Source of the DNA: Escherichia phage VerenaMeyer_Bas76
DNA length: 43,821 nucleotides
Reading direction: 5' to 3' (one strand)
Sequence record: PQ850632.1
Part shown: one piece after another, positions 5,112 through 41,842 of the stretch
Layout of the letters: every line of letters starts with the position of its first letter
Numbering within the stretch: the stretch's first letter is position 1
Program-made: the position numbers and the translations under genes
The notes under the pieces: generated by a model
What the model saw: only the letters and a program-made list of their open reading frames with translations
What the model was told of the DNA's origin: nothing
The model's database searches: none

Positions 5112-5138
5112 TTTTCACCTCCTGTTTAAGTTAACTGA

Positions 5139-5167
5139 ATAGTACCCTATTATATTGGGGTGTGCAA
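5139..5167 (-). promoter_or_regulatory. sigma70-type promoter TTGCAC-N17-TACTAT (early promoter family copy 1)
   Basis: Minus-strand reading TTGCACACCCCAATATAATAGGGTACTATTCA. Near-identical copies at 13943..13971(-), 36609..36637(+) and 38025..38053(+). Confidence 0.55.
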
Positions 5168-5233
5168 ACTATTTATTTACGTATTCCAGTTATTCCACCG
5201 AATTGTAAATGTTGGAATAAACTATTCGAATAG

Positions 5234-13914: not shown

Positions 13915-13942
13915 AATTATTTCCTCAGTAAGTTACATGTGA

Positions 13943-13971
13943 ATAGTACCCTATTATATTGGGGTGTGCAA
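13943..13971 (-). promoter_or_regulatory. sigma70-type promoter TTGCAC-N17-TACTAT (early promoter family copy 2)
   Basis: Minus-strand reading TTGCACACCCCAATATAATAGGGTACTATTCA, identical over about 30 nt to the copy at 5139..5167. Confidence 0.55.
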
Positions 13972-14078
13972 GTAGTGTGCTAGAATAAGTTTGCGCCTAG
14001 TGTCGCACACGAAAAGCGGGTGGTTCCCGCCTGGCGCATTAACCATAACCAGTAACCTCTTAACCAAAGGACTAAAGA

Positions 14079-14857: not shown

Positions 14858-17162
14858 TACGGCTTCCCTAATTGCCAGAGTAAAAACAGAAGGCGCTGAT
14901 GTAGCCGCTAAACAGCTTGACGCTATGGCGGCATCCGCAGACCGTGCGGACACATCCGTAAACAAACTAACGCCGGATGTTAATAAAGTAAACTCCGCTA
15001 CGTCTAAAGCGGCTTCTGACGGTTTCGCTAAATTCCGTAACGCCGCCGGGCAGGTAGGCTTCCAGGTGCAGGACATGGTCGTCCAGTTGCAGTCCGGCAC
15101 GTCTGCATTCGTAGCAATCGGGCAACAAGGCTCTCAGCTTGCGGGTGCTTTCGGCCCTGGTGGTGCGGTGCTTGGGGCTGTAATTGCTCTTGCGTCAGCT
15201 ATCGGTGGCGTCTTGTACAAATCGCTAACAGAGGCGGAGGGGAGTTCAAAAGACCTCGAAGCCGCGCAGAAACAGTTAAAAGACACCTTCCAGCAAACAG
15301 CATCCGGCTCTCTCGAACTGACAGACGGCCTTATCCAGCTTACCCAAATCAGCCGAGAAGCGGCGGAGACTCAGCTCGCTCTGGCTAAGGCTAACGCAGA
15401 CCTTATCGCGCAGCAAACAGCTAAAGCCGTTCGAGAGGACGCAGAATCATGGGAGACATGGAAAGCCTCCACAGCATCGGCTATTAGCCAGTATGATGCG
15501 CTGGTTTCTAAGGGTGCTGATGTAGGCGACACGTTAGAAAAACTCGGTGGCACTTACGAGGGTAATATCGTAGGCGTCAACATGCTGGCACAGAATATAG
15601 CAGAGCTTAGTAGTAAGTTCGGGGTTAACCGTGACCAGGCGCTGGAGATGATAGCGGCACAGAGCGCGTTTAATAAAGAGCCGACCGCTGAGAATGCCCG
15701 CCGCATCGCCGATGTGTTTACCGACTGGCTTGGTAACACTAAGCAGTTGAACCCGGAACTTATCCGCCTGACAGACAACGCCAACAAAAACGCCACGGCG
15801 CTGGAAAACGCAGAGAAGTCGGCAAACGCGGCGGCGGAGGCTCAAAAGAACCTCGGTCGTAACGTTAACTCAACCACGCAGAGATTCCAGGAACAGAACG
15901 AAGCTATCGTCAAGAATCAGCAAATCGCCATCTTAAGCGACCGTGAGCGTATCAGGGCACAAGCTGAACTGGATAAGCAGGCGTTCGCTAAACGTGAAGC
16001 TGTCACCAAAGAACAGATAGCCGCGTATAACGCTGCCCGTGACGCGGAAGCGCAGCAAGACATAGCTCGCATTGACAAGACCGAGAAAGAGAAGGCAGAC
16101 CGCGAGGCTAAATCGAACGAGAAACGTCTGGCGGCGCAGGCCAAACGCGAAGAAACGGCGGCGCAACGTCAGAAAAAAGCGGCGGAAGATTTCCTCGCTA
16201 CTGTCGACCGAACAACCGGAGACGAAATTTCTCGCATCACGGCGGCAGAAGAGCAGAAACTGGCGAAACTTGAAGAGTTTAACCGCGCCGGAACAATAAG
16301 CCAGCAGCAGTACGAAAACGCCAAAACGCAGATTATGCTCACCGCCGAGCAGGCCCGACAGGAAGAACTGGATAAGAAAAGAAAAGAAGCCCAGGAAAAG
16401 CAGCAGAAAGGCGACGACTTCATGGCACAGATTATGGGCCAGAACGCTACTGAGCTTGAGCTTCTCGACATCCAGGAACAGCAGAAGCTGGCGGTCGCGG
16501 ATAAGTATCGAGAGCAGGGGCTTATTAACGAGGAACAGTATCAGGCGGCACTTAACGCTATAAATGAGCAGTATGCTACGAAGCGCGCCGACGCTTTAGG
16601 TAATTCTTTCGGTGACATGGCGGCTAATGCTAAAACAGCATTTGGCGAGGCGTCCACCGCGTATAAAGCGTTTGCTATCGCACAGGCAACTATCGCCACG
16701 TACACATCGGCTATCGAGGCATATAAGTCAACGGCTGCCATCCCTGTTGTCGGCCCATTCCTGGCGCCGGTTGCTGCGGCTACTGCCGTTGCCGCGGGGC
16801 TGGCTAATATCGCCAAAATCCGCTCGGCGCGTGAGCAGGGCGGGCAGTTATCCGCCGGGCAGGCTTCTACTATCGCAGAACGCGGTAAACCAGAAGTTAT
16901 TATGCCTGCTGGTGCATCGCGAGTACGCACTGCACAGCAGATGAAAGAAATTATGGGGCAAAACGGGTCTTCTTCCGGCCCATCTAATGTTACCATCGTA
17001 AACAACACGAGTTCTCAAATCGGCAACGTATCCACTGAGCAAGATGATGAAGGCCGTTTGCGTATCATCATAGAAGAGCAAGTTGCTGCATCTTTGCAGA
17101 ACAGCAACAGCAAGATTAGCAAGGCCCGCAAAGCCACAAGAAATGCGCCGGGGTTTAAATAA
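14850..17162 (+). CDS. tail tape measure protein
   Basis: About 770 aa. Long Ala/Gln/Glu/Lys-rich coiled-coil, hydrophobic Gly/Ala-rich segments near the C-terminal third, located after the chaperones. ATG 14850 preferred over TTG 14835. Confidence 0.85.
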   Translation: MADTASLIARVKTEGADVAAKQLDAMAASADRADTSVNKLTPDVNKVNSATSKAASDGFAKFRNAAGQVGFQVQDMVVQLQSGTSAFVAIGQQGSQLAGAFGPGGAVLGAVIALASAIGGVLYKSLTEAEGSSKDLEAAQKQLKDTFQQTASGSLELTDGLIQLTQISREAAETQLALAKANADLIAQQTAKAVREDAESWETWKASTASAISQYDALVSKGADVGDTLEKLGGTYEGNIVGVNMLAQNIAELSSKFGVNRDQALEMIAAQSAFNKEPTAENARRIADVFTDWLGNTKQLNPELIRLTDNANKNATALENAEKSANAAAEAQKNLGRNVNSTTQRFQEQNEAIVKNQQIAILSDRERIRAQAELDKQAFAKREAVTKEQIAAYNAARDAEAQQDIARIDKTEKEKADREAKSNEKRLAAQAKREETAAQRQKKAAEDFLATVDRTTGDEISRITAAEEQKLAKLEEFNRAGTISQQQYENAKTQIMLTAEQARQEELDKKRKEAQEKQQKGDDFMAQIMGQNATELELLDIQEQQKLAVADKYREQGLINEEQYQAALNAINEQYATKRADALGNSFGDMAANAKTAFGEASTAYKAFAIAQATIATYTSAIEAYKSTAAIPVVGPFLAPVAAATAVAAGLANIAKIRSAREQGGQLSAGQASTIAERGKPEVIMPAGASRVRTAQQMKEIMGQNGSSSGPSNVTIVNNTSSQIGNVSTEQDDEGRLRIIIEEQVAASLQNSNSKISKARKATRNAPGFK

Positions 17163-24542: not shown

Positions 24543-25963
24543 TTCTTACCTCGTCTCTTCATGTAATTAAGCAACTCTTCCTGTACCGATTTTTTCTCGT
24601 CCGTACGCGCGGCAACAACCTCGTCCAGCGTGTCTTTAGCGACGATATGATAGAGGAACACCGGGCGCTCGTGTCCCGCCTGTTTCTGGCGGACCGGGCC
24701 GATGCGCTCAACGACCTGCAAATAGTGCTCAAGGTTCCAGCCTTGTGAAATAAACGCTAGATGGTGTCCGCCGTCCTGTAAATTCAAACCATGCCCGGCT
24801 GACGCAGGATGCACGCATAAGATTTCGATTTCGCCGCGGTTCCACGCTTCCATCTGCTTATTCCCCTTAGCGCCTTTGGCAAACGCCTGCGCCTGCGGGA
24901 AACGTTTCAGGATGCGCTCCAGTTCGTGCTTGAACTGATAGGCCACCAGTAACGGTGCCCCCTGTAACTCCTCAACAATGGACTCGAGCGCATCAAGTTT
25001 CGTGTCGTGCACTTTCTCCCATTCTTTGGTTGCTTCGCCGTCTTCGCCCGTCACATACACGGCACCGGAAGCAATCTGCAAGCACTTAGCCGTTTTAGCG
25101 GCAGCGTTGGCAGCCTGCACCTCCCCACTCTCCAGTTCCGCGATTAACTTTTTCTCCATGTCGTCGTACGCCTGACGCGCTTTCTTCGGCAGGTCTATTT
25201 CGACCGGTACGATAATCGGCGCTTCACAACCAAACCACTCGGCAGGGTCTATGGTCAGGCTGATGTCTTTCATCTTCTGATGAATCTCATTATCCGCACC
25301 CGGTCGTGCATGATACTCGCGGGCCATAGCCGATTTACCTTTCTGTACCGAGTTAAACCAGCGGTCGGTGAATGCTGTGTACGAAGAGCCGAGGCGCTCG
25401 CCAGCGTCGATAAACCAGTTCTGACCCCACAAGTCTTTGAGGCCGTTTGGTGACGGTGTGCCTGTCAGGTTGATGAAACGCTTAACCTTTCCGAACGCAA
25501 CCTTGCTGAGCGCCTTTGCCCGCTTGCTACCACCCGAACGGCTGCGGAACGATTTAAGCTTCGTGCTTTCATCGGCAACGATAACCGTAAAAGGCCAGTC
25601 GTCTTTGCCGTAGTAGTCAATTAGCCACTCGATAACTTCGTAGTTAGTGCACACCACGTTAGCATCTGACTCCAGCGCTGCGATGCGGCGCTTCTCCGAA
25701 CCAGTTGCATCTACGACACGCAGACAAGGGAATTGCCATTTCTCTTGTTCAGCGGGCCACGTACCGGACGCAACACGTAACGGGGCAAGGATTAACACGC
25801 GGTCCTCTTCCGTAAGCTGCCCGTTGCGGAACAGGCGGTTGAGCACCCACATAGTGGAGGAGGTTTTACCTCCCCCCATTCCGCACCAGATATTACAGCG
25901 CGGGTGTTGCAGCATGAACGAAGTCATGAGCTTCTGGTACTCACGCCTTTGAAACTTACTCAT
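24539..25963 (-). CDS. SNF2-family (superfamily II) helicase
   Basis: 474 aa. Walker A GMGGGKTSS, motif II DESTKLK, motif III LTGTPSPN, C-terminal helicase motif QVVERIGPVRQ. Confidence 0.85.
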   Translation of the reverse strand: MSKFQRREYQKLMTSFMLQHPRCNIWCGMGGGKTSSTMWVLNRLFRNGQLTEEDRVLILAPLRVASGTWPAEQEKWQFPCLRVVDATGSEKRRIAALESDANVVCTNYEVIEWLIDYYGKDDWPFTVIVADESTKLKSFRSRSGGSKRAKALSKVAFGKVKRFINLTGTPSPNGLKDLWGQNWFIDAGERLGSSYTAFTDRWFNSVQKGKSAMAREYHARPGADNEIHQKMKDISLTIDPAEWFGCEAPIIVPVEIDLPKKARQAYDDMEKKLIAELESGEVQAANAAAKTAKCLQIASGAVYVTGEDGEATKEWEKVHDTKLDALESIVEELQGAPLLVAYQFKHELERILKRFPQAQAFAKGAKGNKQMEAWNRGEIEILCVHPASAGHGLNLQDGGHHLAFISQGWNLEHYLQVVERIGPVRQKQAGHERPVFLYHIVAKDTLDEVVAARTDEKKSVQEELLNYMKRRGKK

Positions 25964-26941: not shown

Positions 26942-27257
26942 TTCTAAATTCCTTATATTGTTGGGGTATGTGCTTACTATAATAGTCTGCTATTAGGGTG
27001 TCAATCTGTTTTATCGAACCAACGACAAAAACATTTGCGCCACGTTTACGTATACGCTCGTGTTCCCGTAGCTGGTGCGGGTCTGGCTTAGTGTTTTCGT
27101 CTTTCTTCACCTCGACGAACCAGACGATGCCGCCGGGTAGAATTGCCAGCAGGTCAGGAGCGCCTGAACGTCCTTCGTAGGAAAGTTTACGAACGAGGCC
27201 ACCAATGGCCTCGAATCGCTCTTTTGCGTATTTCTGGATGCGGCCCTCTTTAGTCAT
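26925..27257 (-). CDS. VRR-NUC domain nuclease
   Basis: 110 aa. PD-(D/E)XK-type motifs GAPDLLAI...VWFVEVKK...QLREHE, characteristic of VRR-NUC. Confidence 0.7.
   Translation of the reverse strand: MTKEGRIQKYAKERFEAIGGLVRKLSYEGRSGAPDLLAILPGGIVWFVEVKKDENTKPDPHQLREHERIRKRGANVFVVGSIKQIDTLIADYYSKHIPQQYKEFRNETRI
26975..27003 (-). promoter_or_regulatory. sigma70-type promoter TTGACA-N17-TATAGT (internal, inside the 3' end of the VRR-NUC gene)
   Basis: Minus-strand reading TTGACACCCTAATAGCAGACTATTATAGT. Same family as 30678 and 32978. Confidence 0.45.
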
Positions 27258-30677: not shown

Positions 30678-30706
30678 ACTATAATAGCTAACTATTCATG
30701 TGTCAA
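30678..30706 (-). promoter_or_regulatory. sigma70-type promoter TTGACA-N17-TATAGT
   Basis: Minus-strand reading TTGACACATGAATAGTTAGCTATTATAGT, nearly identical to the promoter at 32978..33006. Confidence 0.55.
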
Positions 30707-32977: not shown

Positions 32978-33006
32978 ACTATAATAGCGAACTATTCACA
33001 TGTCAA
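32978..33006 (-). promoter_or_regulatory. sigma70-type promoter TTGACA-N17-TATAGT
   Basis: Minus-strand reading TTGACATGTGAATAGTTCGCTATTATAGT. Divergent from the plus-strand promoter of the XRE gene. Confidence 0.6.
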
Positions 33007-33030
33007 TGGGCTTTTCTAAAATAATTAATA

Positions 33031-33039
33031 TGGTACTAT
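33031..33039 (+). promoter_or_regulatory. candidate extended -10 promoter (TGgTACTAT) for the XRE-type HTH gene
   Basis: TG at 33031-33032 and hexamer TACTAT at 33034-33039 followed by the ACTATTCA box; no good -35. Confidence 0.35.
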
Positions 33040-33070
33040 TCACATATCAACTGACTAAGGAGTAATTGAC

Positions 33071-36540: not shown

Positions 36541-36608
36541 GTTACCAAGTAATAAGAATAAAGGCACAACCCTCCCCGAAGAATCACAACGGCAACGTAA
36601 CTATTCTC

Positions 36609-36637
36609 TTGCACACCCCAATATAATAGGATACTAT
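36609..36637 (+). promoter_or_regulatory. sigma70-type promoter TTGCAC-N17-TACTAT (early promoter family copy 3)
   Basis: TTGCACACCCCAATATAATAGGATACTATTCA followed by the leader CGAAACGAGACAGAGGAG. Confidence 0.55.
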
Positions 36638-36662
36638 TCACTTATCGAAACGAGACAGAGGA

Positions 36663-36863
36663 GTGGTGGTTATGTTTAAGAAGGGTCAGTTGATTAAAAC
36701 GATGTACGGTAGCTTAGGTATTATTGAAAAGAAATCGGCAGTGTACCGAAGTTCTTATGTCGTTAGCTTACTCAGGGAGCACGGGTTAAGTTCCGCGGCG
36801 TATTACCAAGAGTATGAAATGAAACTAATTGGCAACAATTTTAAATTCAAAGGGGTGAAGTGA
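36663..36863 (+). CDS. hypothetical early protein (66 aa)
   Basis: First ORF after promoter copy 3. GTG 36663 or ATG 36672. Confidence 0.45.
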   Translation: MVVMFKKGQLIKTMYGSLGIIEKKSAVYRSSYVVSLLREHGLSSAAYYQEYEMKLIGNNFKFKGVK

Positions 36864-37984: not shown

Positions 37985-38024
37985 CCTGTCCCGTGGTGAC
38001 AATACAAACACCAATAAAATTTAC

Positions 38025-38053
38025 TTGCACACTAAGATAGAATAGGCTACTAT
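38025..38053 (+). promoter_or_regulatory. sigma70-type promoter TTGCAC-N17-TACTAT (early promoter family copy 4)
   Basis: TTGCACACTAAGATAGAATAGGCTACTATTCA followed by the leader ACACAAACGAGAGGAGAGACGGAAG. Confidence 0.55.
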
Positions 38054-38084
38054 TCATTTACACAAACGAGAGGAGAGACGGAAG

Positions 38085-38234
38085 ATGGTTACTTTGATGG
38101 ATATGGAATTCGAAAACAGCGTAGCAACTTACCGCGAGATGACTATGGCGCAGGCGTATCACCTGGCCTCAAACGGCAACTTCTACAAGGCGCAAATCAT
38201 CAATGAGTTCGGGGTAATTGACTATGAATTTTAA
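38085..38234 (+). CDS. hypothetical 49-aa protein (below cutoff)
   Basis: ATG 38085 after GAGGAGAGA. Manual translation MVTLMDMEFENSVATYREMTMAQAYHLASNGNFYKAQIINEFGVIDYEF. Confidence 0.4.
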   Translation: MVTLMDMEFENSVATYREMTMAQAYHLASNGNFYKAQIINEFGVIDYEF

Positions 38235-38496
38235 CAGTTACACCGTGACCGTTGATTTTGAGGGGCTGGAGTTGCCCCTCCCCAACAACTACAGATATAT
38301 AACACGTGACCGTTTCGGTTTTATCCAGGGGTGGCGGAACAAACCAACAGACACTGAGTTCGGGATGTCAGGAGGAGAAGAGTTGCCGATCACTTTCGGG
38401 CATCAGAGTAGTAATGAAAAACTTAAAACTGTGATTCGTAAGTATCGACGCCGTGGTAATACCGGGCTTATAGCGATAACCGGCGCTGTTGAGTAA
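38224..38496 (+). CDS. hypothetical early protein (about 90 aa)
   Basis: ORF track 38218..38496. ATG 38224 or TTG 38218. Confidence 0.4.
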   Translation: MNFNSYTVTVDFEGLELPLPNNYRYITRDRFGFIQGWRNKPTDTEFGMSGGEELPITFGHQSSNEKLKTVIRKYRRRGNTGLIAITGAVE

Positions 38497-38515
38497 ACGG
38501 GAGGAGAGACAGAAG

Positions 38516-39202
38516 ATGAGTAACAAAAACGAAGTATTCGAGTACCTGATTGACCAACTACGTCAGCAGGTAAATAACAACCAGTGCGAAGACCTGGCGC
38601 ATGAGGTGCAGTCACTTAAGAATCAGTTACGTGATGCGTCGGCGCTGGTGGCGGAGTTGCAGGAAGACAACATTAAGAAATCTGAGCACATATCGCACCT
38701 GTCGGAACTGGTGGACGAGTTGATGGGGACTATAACGTTAATGAACGGGGACGTTGAGGCTTACAAAGTTCTACGCAAATGTGCGTGCGCCTATGGGCAA
38801 TCCGGTTGTCGCGACGACGCCGCTCATATCGAGAAATCGTGGATTGAGCACGCTGGCGCCGCATGCCCTGTACCGGACGATACTGTTGTTGATATTAAAT
38901 TCCGAAACGGCAAAATGGAAAGTAATACCAAAGCGCTATGGTGGAGTTGGGGCCTAAATGGCGGACCATACGAAATTGTTGCGTACCGTGTTGCCGCGCA
39001 ACAATGCAATAAGGACGATACTCGTGAGTGCGCGCATGATTGGGTGCTGGACGAAAAAGGGGACTACTTCATTTGCGCTAAATGCGGTAAGCAAGAAGCT
39101 GACTTAATTGATTGCCGACACACTAATACCGTCGGTTTGCGTAAGGGCTTTGCGCCGGGGTTTACTAAAAAGTGTCTGGATTGCGGGGCTAAACTGAAAT
39201 GA
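38516..39202 (+). CDS. coiled-coil / Cys-rich zinc-ribbon protein (228 aa)
   Basis: ATG 38516 after GGGAGGAGAGA. N-terminal heptad-like region; C-terminal CxxC pairs (CAKCG...CLDCG). Confidence 0.5.
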   Translation: MSNKNEVFEYLIDQLRQQVNNNQCEDLAHEVQSLKNQLRDASALVAELQEDNIKKSEHISHLSELVDELMGTITLMNGDVEAYKVLRKCACAYGQSGCRDDAAHIEKSWIEHAGAACPVPDDTVVDIKFRNGKMESNTKALWWSWGLNGGPYEIVAYRVAAQQCNKDDTRECAHDWVLDEKGDYFICAKCGKQEADLIDCRHTNTVGLRKGFAPGFTKKCLDCGAKLK

Positions 39203-40576: not shown

Positions 40577-40841
40577 GCTATTCTGGTTTGCCGTAATGCT
40601 GGCAATCGGTGGCGCATCGCTGTTTAATGTATACCACCCCAGTGTTGACGATGGGTTATTTGGTCGGGTGCTCTACATCCTGACTGCTATCGTTTGCGCT
40701 GCCGGATGTATTCACCTGTTACAGGGCAGCATGTCTCCGACGCTGCCTGAGACATTAATCACATTAGTTGCGCTGCGCCAGATTCGTCAGGCGTGGCTGT
40801 CATACGGAGGACATAAGCGTGTCTCGAAACATTTCAGATAA
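40569..40841 (+). CDS. second lysis-cassette membrane protein (holin/antiholin partner candidate)
   Basis: 90 aa, ATG after GGAGGA. Two hydrophobic segments. Overlaps the holin 3' end and the endolysin 5' end. Confidence 0.45.
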   Translation: MTELFWFAVMLAIGGASLFNVYHPSVDDGLFGRVLYILTAIVCAAGCIHLLQGSMSPTLPETLITLVALRQIRQAWLSYGGHKRVSKHFR

Positions 40842-41304
40842 TGGGTTGCATTTCACCGCTGCGTTCGAGGGATTCCGAGGTACTGCGTATCGTGCTACGC
40901 CGAACGAGAAGTACCCTACTATTGGCTACGGAAGCTATGGCCCTCATGTGTATGAAGGGCAGAAGATTACGAAGGGGCAGGGCCTCCTGTTACTGAATCG
41001 TGATATGGCTAAGGCCGTAGCTGCGGTTGACGCAGCAGCACACCATTCATTGACACAGGCACAGTTCGATGCAGTGTGCGACCTGGTATACAACGCAGGT
41101 GCTGGTGTGATTGCCGCTACCACCGGCACGGGTAAGGCACTGCGTTCTGGTGATATTGCAACGCTGCGGGCTAAGCTGGCGCTGTTCATCAACCAGAACG
41201 GCAAACCGTTACTTGGCCTGCGTCGCCGTACTGCCGGTCGTCTGGCGCTGTTCGACGGTAAGCCGTGGCAAGAGGCGGAGGCTATCGGGAGGGCTGTTAA
41301 ATGA
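40819..41304 (+). CDS. endolysin (lysozyme-like, glycoside hydrolase family 24-type motifs)
   Basis: AFEGFRGTAYRATPNEKYPTIGYGS matches the catalytic Glu region and conserved TIGYG of T4-type lysozymes. GTG 40819 after GGAGGA. The ORF track start at 40768 is probably too far upstream. Confidence 0.7.
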   Translation: MSRNISDNGLHFTAAFEGFRGTAYRATPNEKYPTIGYGSYGPHVYEGQKITKGQGLLLLNRDMAKAVAAVDAAAHHSLTQAQFDAVCDLVYNAGAGVIAATTGTGKALRSGDIATLRAKLALFINQNGKPLLGLRRRTAGRLALFDGKPWQEAEAIGRAVK

Positions 41305-41431
41305 TGGACGAATACGAAGGCGTTTAGTAAACTTATCCCTACGCTGTTTGTGCTTGCATACTAAGCCCCGGTAAACCCGAAGCAGCAGCCCAAGCGGTGG
41401 AGACTGCGTAGGGTTCAAGGGCTTATGGCCA

Positions 41432-41462
41432 AAACCCGGACCGCAAATCCGGGTTTTATTTT
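41432..41462 (+). terminator. intrinsic terminator after the endolysin gene
   Basis: AACCCGGA-CCGCAAA-TCCGGGTT followed by TTATTTT. Confidence 0.6.
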
Positions 41463-41467
41463 ACCAA

Positions 41468-41496
41468 TTGACACCTAAGACTAATCCGACGATACT
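41468..41496 (+). promoter_or_regulatory. candidate promoter TTGACA-N17-GATACT
   Basis: Perfect -35 TTGACA at 41468-41473; weak -10 GATACT at 41491-41496. About 40 nt upstream of a strong terminator. Confidence 0.3.
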
Positions 41497-41535
41497 TAAA
41501 TCACCTCCTGCTCCATCCCTCTGCTCTCCAGTTTT

Positions 41536-41569
41536 ATCCCGGCCCTGACCCAGCCGGGATTTTTTTTTA
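41536..41569 (+). terminator. strong intrinsic terminator (ATCCCGGC-CCTGACCCA-GCCGGGAT plus T9)
   Basis: 8-bp GC-rich stem followed by nine T. Confidence 0.7.
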
Positions 41570-41590
41570 TCTATTTTCTGCAATGACTAG

Positions 41591-41619
41591 TTGACTATTA
41601 CCATCGACCCTATTATATT
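41591..41619 (+). promoter_or_regulatory. sigma70-type promoter TTGACT-N17-TATATT
   Basis: -35 at 41591-41596, -10 at 41614-41619, followed by the leader CGACAACGAGAACGGGGTAGAGAGAA and ATG 41654. Confidence 0.5.
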
Positions 41620-41653
41620 TACTCCATCGACAACGAGAACGGGGTAGAGAGAA

Positions 41654-41842
41654 ATGATGACTAAGATTAAGCATACCGATAACTGGGGTGATTTCATGGA
41701 GATAGAGAAATGCCGTGACGGGACATTACTTATAACTTGTACAGACGGAGATACCGACGAATCAGTTAGTGTTAACGTGAGTATGGATGATTTTATGATT
41801 ATTGTTGAGCAAGCGGCGGCTTTTTACGGAGATGATAAATGA
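41654..41842 (+). CDS. hypothetical acidic protein (62 aa)
   Basis: First gene after the promoter at 41591. Two Cys pairs. Confidence 0.45.
   Translation: MMTKIKHTDNWGDFMEIEKCRDGTLLITCTDGDTDESVSVNVSMDDFMIIVEQAAAFYGDDK

Follow-up and report, generated by a model that had tools for sequence, protein, structure and literature searches.

A conserved promoter-to-terminator cassette behind the endolysin gene of Escherichia phage VerenaMeyer_Bas76 and the small RNA that it may encode

What is served by the non-coding DNA behind the endolysin gene of Escherichia phage VerenaMeyer_Bas76, where a promoter appears to run straight into an intrinsic terminator? The window analysed here is the whole stretch of 43,821 nucleotides (nt) in record PQ850632.1, a genome-sized Kagunavirus (Guernseyvirinae) sequence for which BLAST with the region and its flanks returned K1G, K1ind1-3, XY1 and others at 94-96% identity, and its map of open reading frames (ORFs) agrees with that of the annotated Kagunavirus Schulenburg. 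A preliminary description, made from the letters of this sequence, had listed a series of motifs between positions 41305 and 41569, and all of them were found where it had placed them. This region is two different things, namely the 3' tail of the endolysin allele (41305-41467) and the start of a conserved cassette of 186 nt (41468-41653). For the cassette the best reading, to which we would give about an even chance, is that it encodes an independently transcribed small RNA (sRNA) of ~65 nt with a terminator-anchored layout of the Hfq type.

The cassette consists, in order, of a promoter (P1), a 33-nt CU-rich tract, a hairpin of 8 base pairs (bp) followed by nine T (the T9 terminator), a second promoter (P2) and a 28-nt leader that reaches up to an ATG (Table 1). 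Positions 41468-41650 were matched by >400 phage records, of which >300 belong to Salmonella phages of the Jerseyvirus type, with 75-80% identity, and using the Jersey version of the cassette as query we recovered 449 records, all Jerseyvirus or Kagunavirus by label or close match. From IMG/VR, metagenomes and GenBank 63 distinct copies were collected with three independent sequence anchors and aligned; L-numbers denote the loci of relatives that were compared with the window. The matched segment starts with the first base of the P1 -35 hexamer and stops just short of the ATG at 41654, and at both edges the neighbouring sequence changes. To the left, at least six different contexts adjoin the -35: the endolysin TGA lying inside TTGACA (read as GGT TGA CA), the TAG stop of the Jersey endolysin, a terminator of the endolysin tail (T1), T1 followed by a different 105-nt sequence, the stop of an ORF of 25 amino acids (aa), and at least two further sequences. 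To the right, at least eight different ORFs start at the ATG among relatives.

Between the window and Jersey the cassette is 77% identical, alignable genes are 68-88% identical (they differ at 12-32%) and the immediate neighbours do not align, so that by comparison the cassette appears as conserved as a gene and seems to have been inherited as a block by Kagunavirus and Jerseyvirus. A search with the 62-aa first ORF behind it found only two related loci, because that ORF is mosaic. A host origin or prophage copy was rejected, as 5,426 E. coli genomes contained no match to the cassette, and scans of viral and genome contigs with a 16-mer, which is too short as a pattern, returned chance-level matches only. 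We also observed that the TGA within the P1 -35 is the stop of the endolysin or of the 25-aa ORF in L003, L004, L007, L084 and others, including most Kagunavirus relatives, so that ribosomes translating the lysis operon of those phages would come to a stop within this hexamer. For most relatives the endolysin stop codon falls inside the -35 or 2 nt before it, and T9 is the sole terminator.

The pattern of change within P1 is what most favours a promoter. P1 matches the sigma-70 consensus at 10 of 12 hexamer positions, with A at -11, T at -7 and a 17-nt spacer that falls within the usual 16-18 nt. Three unrelated versions of this spacer occur, CCTAAGACTAATCCGAC in Kaguna, CACAGGAGGATTCCTAA in Jersey and CCCAACAACGGCAGCTT in L023, L072 and L083, the latter two sharing 9 and 5 of 17 positions with the first, and all three versions keep TTGACA, a distance of exactly 17 nt and G/CATACT. 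The only -35 variants were TTGACG, TTAACA and TTGGCA, each in one sequence. Behind the -10 follow 6 hypervariable nt (TAAATC, AAACCT, GGTGTC, AAACAT, GGTTTC), and conservation resumes at the seventh base, a purine and the predicted +1, which is A41503 in the window. Fixed hexamers, a free spacer and discriminator and a fixed transcript are as predicted for a promoter before a functional RNA, and this pattern is hard to explain for a mere 3' untranslated region (UTR). Furthermore, phages with T1 upstream retain P1, the CU-rich tract and T9 intact, which argues against dependence on read-through from the lysis genes. The comparison thus favours a real promoter at the site where the preliminary description had proposed one with a perfect -35 TTGACA and a weak -10, and P1 would be expected to fire.

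Behind P1, positions 1-33 of the predicted RNA are unpaired in the centroid fold (whole RNA -13.9 kcal/mol, z = -2.56). Parts of this tract are near-invariant across the genera, namely (C)CUCCUG, CAUCCCUCU and CUC(U)CC, as is the CATCCCTCT core; CAUCCCUCU, CUCC and the unpaired state of the tract correspond to the conserved single-stranded seed of an Hfq-dependent sRNA. There is no start codon on the plus strand of the tract, and its indels relative to Jersey (2 nt and 4 nt) shift the frame, so no peptide is conserved on either strand. Two minus-strand candidates were rejected: a 40-aa ORF (41461-41583), broken in Jersey by the out-of-frame indels, and the mini-ORF MEQEVI, the length of which is not conserved and for which no minus-strand promoter is visible.

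The T9 hairpin has six G-C pairs among its eight and runs directly into nine T, the form of an intrinsic terminator. It is paired in 89.9% of cells across 31 distinct sequences, whereas sliding of the partner columns gives 52% or less, and it shows covariation: in all nine Jersey-type sequences a CG pair has become UA, a double change, and a single G.U change occurs. Jersey has two or three further A-U pairs. In enterobacterial sRNAs, Hfq binds a module made up of a U-rich stretch, a terminator hairpin and a tail of about 7 U or more. The same order is found here, with UUUUAU and U9 in the window and UUUAU or UUUCU and U7-U14 in relatives, so the predicted RNA would have the layout of this module and Hfq would be a candidate partner. 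Scanning of the whole window with Rfam at gathering thresholds gave no family, and the sub-threshold matches on this strand were all terminator-anchored sRNAs, the best being RF02278 with 25.0 bits against a gathering threshold of 50 (E = 0.006 in a 451-nt search). Block conservation, the P1 pattern and the hairpin covariation together support the earlier proposal of a promoter-to-terminator unit that would give a tiny CU-rich RNA.

Table 1. Coordinates of the features discussed, as positions of the window unless a relative's locus is named.
Feature	Position	Strand	Description
Promoter P1	41468-41496	+	-35 TTGACA 41468-41473, 17-nt spacer, -10 GATACT 41491-41496
Predicted small RNA	41503-41568	+	~63-66 nt; inferred from P1 and T9; 3' end within the T9 run (~41565-41568)
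CU-rich tract	41503-41535	+	33 nt, unstructured; three motifs resembling an anti-Shine-Dalgarno, (C)CUCCUG, CAUCCCUCU and CUCUCC, then UUUUAU
T9 terminator	41536-41568	+	8-bp hairpin ATCCCGGC/GCCGGGAT (41536-41560), 9-nt loop, T9 41560-41568
Promoter P2	41591-41619	+	TTGACT-17-TATATT; before an operon of small genes
P2 leader	41626-41653	+	AUCGACAACGAGAACGGGGUAGAGAGAA, conserved, 28 nt, up to ATG 41654; following ORF variable
Leaders of the P2 family	36649-36675, 38065-38090, 38496-38520, 41632-41656	+
Leader of the P2 family	32965-32940	-
Insertion in relatives	L084 248-335; L068 4695-4784	-
Long-range stem	CCCTACGC 41337-41344 and GCGTAGGG 41406-41413	+	extendable to 11 nt (41337-41347/41403-41413), 91%
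Hairpin cassette TAAGCCC...GGGCTTA	41362-41425	+	~64 nt, in the minimum-energy fold
Terminator 1 (T1)	41431-41464	+	10-bp hairpin AAAACCCGGA/TCCGGGTTTT (41431-41457), 7-nt loop, T-rich tail
Endolysin gene	40819-41304	+	stop TGA 41302-41304; Pfam Phage_lysozyme E = 2.8e-26
terS, terL, structural genes	1-24.2 kilobases (kb)	+
Replication genes	24.5-35.5 kb	-
Small genes and lysis cassette	35.7-41.3 kb	+
Further small-gene run	41654 to record end	+	contains a DUF2737 match above the Pfam threshold

If the cassette encodes such an sRNA, host sigma-70 RNA polymerase would start at P1, at about A41503, and be released at the hairpin and T9, at about 41565-41568. The product would be a free RNA of ~65 nt with a 33-nt single-stranded 5' part that carries three CUCC/CCUC motifs, then UUUUAU, an 8-bp GC hairpin and a tail of U8-9. 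Provided that it accumulates, it may pair with purine-rich translation initiation regions and damp their translation, and its likeliest targets would be host messenger RNAs (mRNAs) and/or the phage's own 'AACGAGA...GGAG...AUG' leaders, of which that of P2 lies 100 nt downstream. In relatives without T1, T9 would also end the lysis operon and the RNA would share its 3' end with the lysis mRNA, and P2 would independently start the next operon.

The complementarity of this RNA to initiation regions appears real but generic, a pyrimidine tract facing purine-rich sequence. When Shine-Dalgarno-bearing initiation regions were ranked (107, about 110), AACGAGA leaders were among the better seed partners, at -15 to -23 kcal/mol, and pairing of the P2 leader with the tract involves CUCU(A/G)CUC:GAGUAGAG and CAUC:GAUG. 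As a target the P2 leader was nevertheless set aside, its energy being unexceptional and its Shine-Dalgarno variants uncompensated. The proposal in the preliminary description that the holin Shine-Dalgarno might be the target did not hold: the initiation regions of holin and endolysin form only weak duplexes, of -13 to -14 kcal/mol, and come behind the 28th-ranked site (-17.1). The best duplex genome-wide lies inside the gene for a 474-aa helicase (25102-25141, minus strand), includes a perfect AACUGGAGAG:CUCUCCAGUU match and has an energy of -40.0 kcal/mol, which none of 27 composition-matched shuffles reached (best shuffle -37.7). Schulenburg and Jersey both retain the 10-mer at this site, in codons for E-L-E-S, and the Jersey RNA is without the complementary part; the differences at the site are synonymous codon changes and therefore show no visible constraint. 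The second leader differs between the genera by a double change (Jersey AGCUCC:GGAGCU vs Kaguna CUCUCC:GGAGAG), and the Jersey seed matches the gp54 initiation region at 12 of 12 positions (UGAUUCAUCCCU to AGGGAUGAAUCA).

Several observations weigh against an sRNA. None of the candidate targets examined was both statistically outstanding and conserved. The initiation region of the first gene behind P2 ranks only 13th to 28th of about 110, and at the orthologous helicase site Jersey's own seed reaches only -21 kcal/mol, which led us to reject that site. Likewise, an 11-nt perfect match at the 32146 initiation region (minus strand) is absent in Schulenburg and Jersey, and the gp54 target was discarded after a compensation check in eight further Jerseyvirus loci, where the other seed variant, CUUAUUC, faces GAAUCAUG, GAGUCAUG, GAACCAUG and AAAUCAUG and the lost pair is not restored. 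The -10 of P1 has only 4 of 6 consensus matches, and promoter-like sites occur at chance density, with 4 found and 3.2 expected in 2.5 kb. L068 is without ~21 nt of the CU core, which is thus not indispensable. The hairpin covariation appears to be essentially one evolutionary event, supportive but thin. Divergence within the data set is low (two genera), and the conservation of the block could partly be recombinational homogenisation. Finally, a temporal RNA sequencing study of the Kagunavirus vB_Eco_K1B4, in whose genome (OQ696342) the cassette occupies 15038-15207 of the minus strand, reports genes only (PMC12645636).

The loss within the CU core of L068 resembles a deletion between two ATCCC repeats. 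Our terminator scan missed both hairpins under its own rules, which allow a loop of at most 8 nt, and the T1 stem runs into its own T-run. The support for this region is comparative and not a matter of single-sequence statistics.

The alternative that survives best, which we consider possible but rather unlikely, is that the cassette is an operon boundary only, with T9 ending the lysis operon and P2 starting the next, conserved as essential punctuation and as a repeatedly homogenised recombination joint. P1 would then be weak, silent or partly reading through T9, and the CU tract a 3' UTR, perhaps one that loads Rho or stabilises the transcript; rut sites are C-rich and G-poor, and the CU tract is alike. 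With the stop codon within the -35 or 2 nt before it in most relatives, lysis transcripts would cross the tract and end at T9, as a boundary of this kind would have it, and GenBank annotators have marked just the terminator and P2. The identity of the block between the window and Jersey also resembles that of conserved genes, and no trans target was found for the RNA. However, a 3' UTR needs no TTGACA and G/CATACT at exactly 17 nt while the spacer between them is replaced. Likewise, a block starting exactly at the -35 in six contexts is unexpected, conservation restarts at the predicted +1, and the T1-bearing phages, which would then need no tract, retain it intact. An sRNA transcribed from P1 is the reading that these features favour.

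We regard as improbable that the unit is a regulated promoter-proximal terminator like lambda PR'-tR', at which an antiterminator or host factor would permit read-through into an operon of small, terminase and structural genes, and where the CU tract of the read-through RNA could fold onto the Shine-Dalgarno and AUG of the first gene. The unit does head a plus-strand array that runs from 41654 through the record end and start to ~24.2 kb, and minimum-energy folds of the read-through RNA pair the tract (CAUC/CUCU(A/G)CUC) with the leader in eight relatives, though to a smaller extent in the window; opposite the most frequent polymorphism of the seed (A/G) the P2 leader has a U, so that this polymorphism is pairing-neutral. 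Nevertheless, the 20 ORFs searched (38.5-43.8 kb and terS) contain no Q or antiterminator Pfam family, and with P2 beyond T9 the operon needs no read-through. The tract is unpaired and provides no antiterminator structure, its energy with the leader is ordinary for a Shine-Dalgarno-bearing site, and the leader Shine-Dalgarno variants in L048, L049, L051, L057 and L084 are uncompensated. The attenuation element that had also been suggested for this site finds no support either, since there is no alternative structure: the 33 nt upstream of the hairpin are G-poor and unpaired, no segment competes for the 5' arm of the hairpin, and P2 lies downstream of the terminator. None of the Rfam cis-regulatory families scores near its threshold.

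A bolder version of the sRNA reading concerns the 5' end of the transcript. In Kagunavirus, positions 41499-41508 read AUCACCUCCU, identical to the last bases of E. coli 16S ribosomal RNA (rRNA), and Jerseyvirus keeps only CUCCUG of this segment. In two metagenomic Kagunavirus-like contigs, L068 and L084 (L077 being the other end of the L084 contig), an insertion of ~80 nt stands exactly between the P1 -10 and CCUCCUG. With 86% identity to each other, both copies adopt the same multi-stem fold, with 2 compensatory and 6 one-sided pair-preserving changes; they had no match in GenBank phages, no Rfam family and were not a transfer RNA by ARAGORN. A structured insert with P1 upstream and seed and terminator downstream would fit an RNA gene, a lead from two copies only. 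That the RNA is a conserved, abundant mimic of the 16S rRNA 3' end which competes with ribosomes for purine-rich initiation regions, with a 5' slot for structured domains as in L068 and L084, strikes us as distinctly improbable; if true, its three anti-Shine-Dalgarno motifs would reprogramme host and/or phage translation.

Highly improbable, lastly, is an element that acts as DNA and not as RNA (a packaging site, genome end, replication origin or recombination hotspot): the starts of IMG/VR contigs L020, L029, L032 and L039 lie no more than 1-2 nt from the initial T of T9 (41560), position 1 of the LP31 record NC_073205.1 is that same T and both cassette edges are mosaic joints, but for Kagunavirus fBC-Eco01 PhageTerm detected no termini (PMC9825357), the contigs share 119 nt between their two ends, like circular assemblies, the T-run varies from T7 to T14 among relatives and is a likely assembly-break point, the divergent gene junction expected at an origin lies elsewhere, near 35.5-38 kb, and the hairpin covariation and hexamer-only conservation would stay unexplained. 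The contig starts at the T-run are probably assembly breaks at a homopolymer and not physical ends. The IMG/VR contigs that start there are circular-looking and come from one sample.

The left part of the region is of another kind. With the non-coding stretch 41305-41467 as query, only a subset of Kagunavirus records was matched, at >=94% identity, and it appears to be a 3' untranslated tail specific to the endolysin allele of the window phage; the closest records label the gene before it endolysin. The long-range stem described earlier within this tail is best regarded as a chance match. Its two sequences are present, but a perfect long-range stem of >=8 bp occurs in 17% of shuffles of 41305-41569 and the stem is missing from the minimum-energy fold (z = -1.78). 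Among six relatives aligned its 5' arm is changed without compensation (AAGCCAAG in L002, ATCCACGC in L010), and L012 and L015 have lost its 3' arm. The TAAGCCC/GGGCTTA hairpin shows one compensatory change, in L002 (TAAGCCT/AGGCTTA), and the region ~41360-41427 that holds it is a block indel among close relatives, missing in L012 and L015; it would seem to be a dispensable element of the endolysin 3' UTR.

T1 likewise has the GC-rich hairpin and U-run of an intrinsic terminator, its stem being followed by TTTT-A-TTTT, and it would end the lysis transcript in this endolysin allele. It is present in the window, L002, L008, L010, L012, L015, L044, L049 and L096, and together with the preceding CGCTGTTTGTGCTTGCAC it sits behind a different 25-aa ORF in L017 and L068, so that T1 and CGCTGTTTGTGCTTGCAC appear to form a portable 3' end found only in some relatives. 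The tandem terminators of the preliminary description are thus both there in the window, but the tandem is limited to this endolysin allele and most relatives have T9 only.

On the other side of T9, P2 is near-invariant in all aligned relatives and lies 22 nt after the T-run. Its leader belongs to a family, (A/C)AACGAGA plus a purine-rich Shine-Dalgarno plus ATG, that stands behind several promoters and has counterparts in Schulenburg and Jersey. We observed that the other family leaders are, as at P2, conserved up to the ATG while the following ORF differs between relatives, and by this comparison promoter-plus-leader cassettes seem to be recombination units of these phages. In the small-gene run from 41654 there is also a NinH-like match, weak and sub-threshold (21.2 bits against the 29.8-bit Pfam cutoff).

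A second repeated promoter motif was seen elsewhere in the genome. The 20-nt motif TGAATAGTAnCCTATTATAT occurs 7 times (0.01 expected), and four copies extend to a 33-nt block (5136-5168, 13940-13972, 36608-36640 and 38024-38056), with further sites of the family at 30679-30706, 32979-33006, 33023-33042 and 26977-27004. On the other strand the 33-nt block reads CTTGCACACCCCAATATAATAGGrTACTATTCA, that is a TTGCAC-17-TACTAT promoter with the palindrome AATAG..CTATT; in other copies a -35 of TTGACA lies eight nt upstream. These sites look like a co-regulated promoter family with an operator-like palindrome. This consensus has been ascribed to a 'phage RNA polymerase' (PMC9825357), and no such polymerase was seen in the annotation of Schulenburg or Jersey.

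How far the cassette has escaped notice can be judged from existing annotation. Five annotated records (Schulenburg, Jersey, phi135, PJNS016 and MA12) mark neither P1 nor an RNA gene from P1 to T9; T9 is annotated as a terminator in Schulenburg (MK931438) and phi135 (MH992509), and P2 as a promoter in Jersey (NC_021777). Literature searches on Guernseyvirinae, Kagunavirus and Jerseyvirus transcriptomes, promoters and terminators, and sRNAs turned up no description of this RNA. At present the block is thus labelled at most "terminator" and "promoter". If the RNA is made, it would represent a new phage sRNA family in ~450 sequenced genomes with a simple design of one promoter, one seed and one terminator, and would explain why a non-coding block is inherited intact between mosaic genes; if P1 is silent, the block is an ordinary operon boundary. 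Strictly virulent phages of E. coli and Salmonella have so far yielded very few known regulatory RNAs, and members of Kagunavirus and Jerseyvirus are in wide use in cocktails for therapy and biocontrol.

The predicted RNA may be compared with four known systems. The lambda oop and P22 sar RNAs are small antisense phage RNAs that overlap a gene on the opposite strand; the unit described here resembles them as a short phage transcript set by its own promoter and intrinsic terminator, but it overlaps no gene on either strand and its neighbours all lie on the plus strand, so that any pairing would be in trans or with the downstream leader. Lambda PR'-tR' yields the 6S RNA of 194 nt and is subject to antitermination by Q. 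Here too a constitutive-looking promoter leads into a nearby intrinsic terminator beside the lysis cassette, heading morphogenesis genes, whereas the unit stands after the lysis genes, P2 lies beyond the terminator, the RNA would be ~65 nt and no Q-like protein was found in the 20 ORFs and terS.

RF02278, the Betaproteobacteria toxic small RNA, comprises RNAs of 57-92 nt in Burkholderia that are toxic once cloned in E. coli (PMC4603805). Like these the predicted RNA is short and has a pyrimidine motif (UG-UCUCC), a linker rich in U, a GC hairpin (CCCGGC...GCCGGG) and a tail of U; it differs in scoring 25 vs 50 bits, in a match carried mostly by the terminator, in taxon and in the 23 model positions that are missing, and the match is a resemblance and not membership.

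The remaining comparison is with the type I 3'-UTR sRNAs such as DapZ and MicL, which are Hfq-dependent, share the terminator of their operon and have their own promoter. Unlike these, the predicted RNA is encoded by a virulent phage, its seed is unusually long (33 nt) and purely pyrimidine-rich, and it has no homologue in the 5,426 E. coli genomes. What it would have in common with them is a sigma-70-type promoter of its own, placed at the operon's 3' end, and, within the RNA, a short single-stranded seed with a U-rich stretch directly before a GC hairpin and a long U tail behind it; in most relatives it would also share its terminator with the upstream lysis mRNA.

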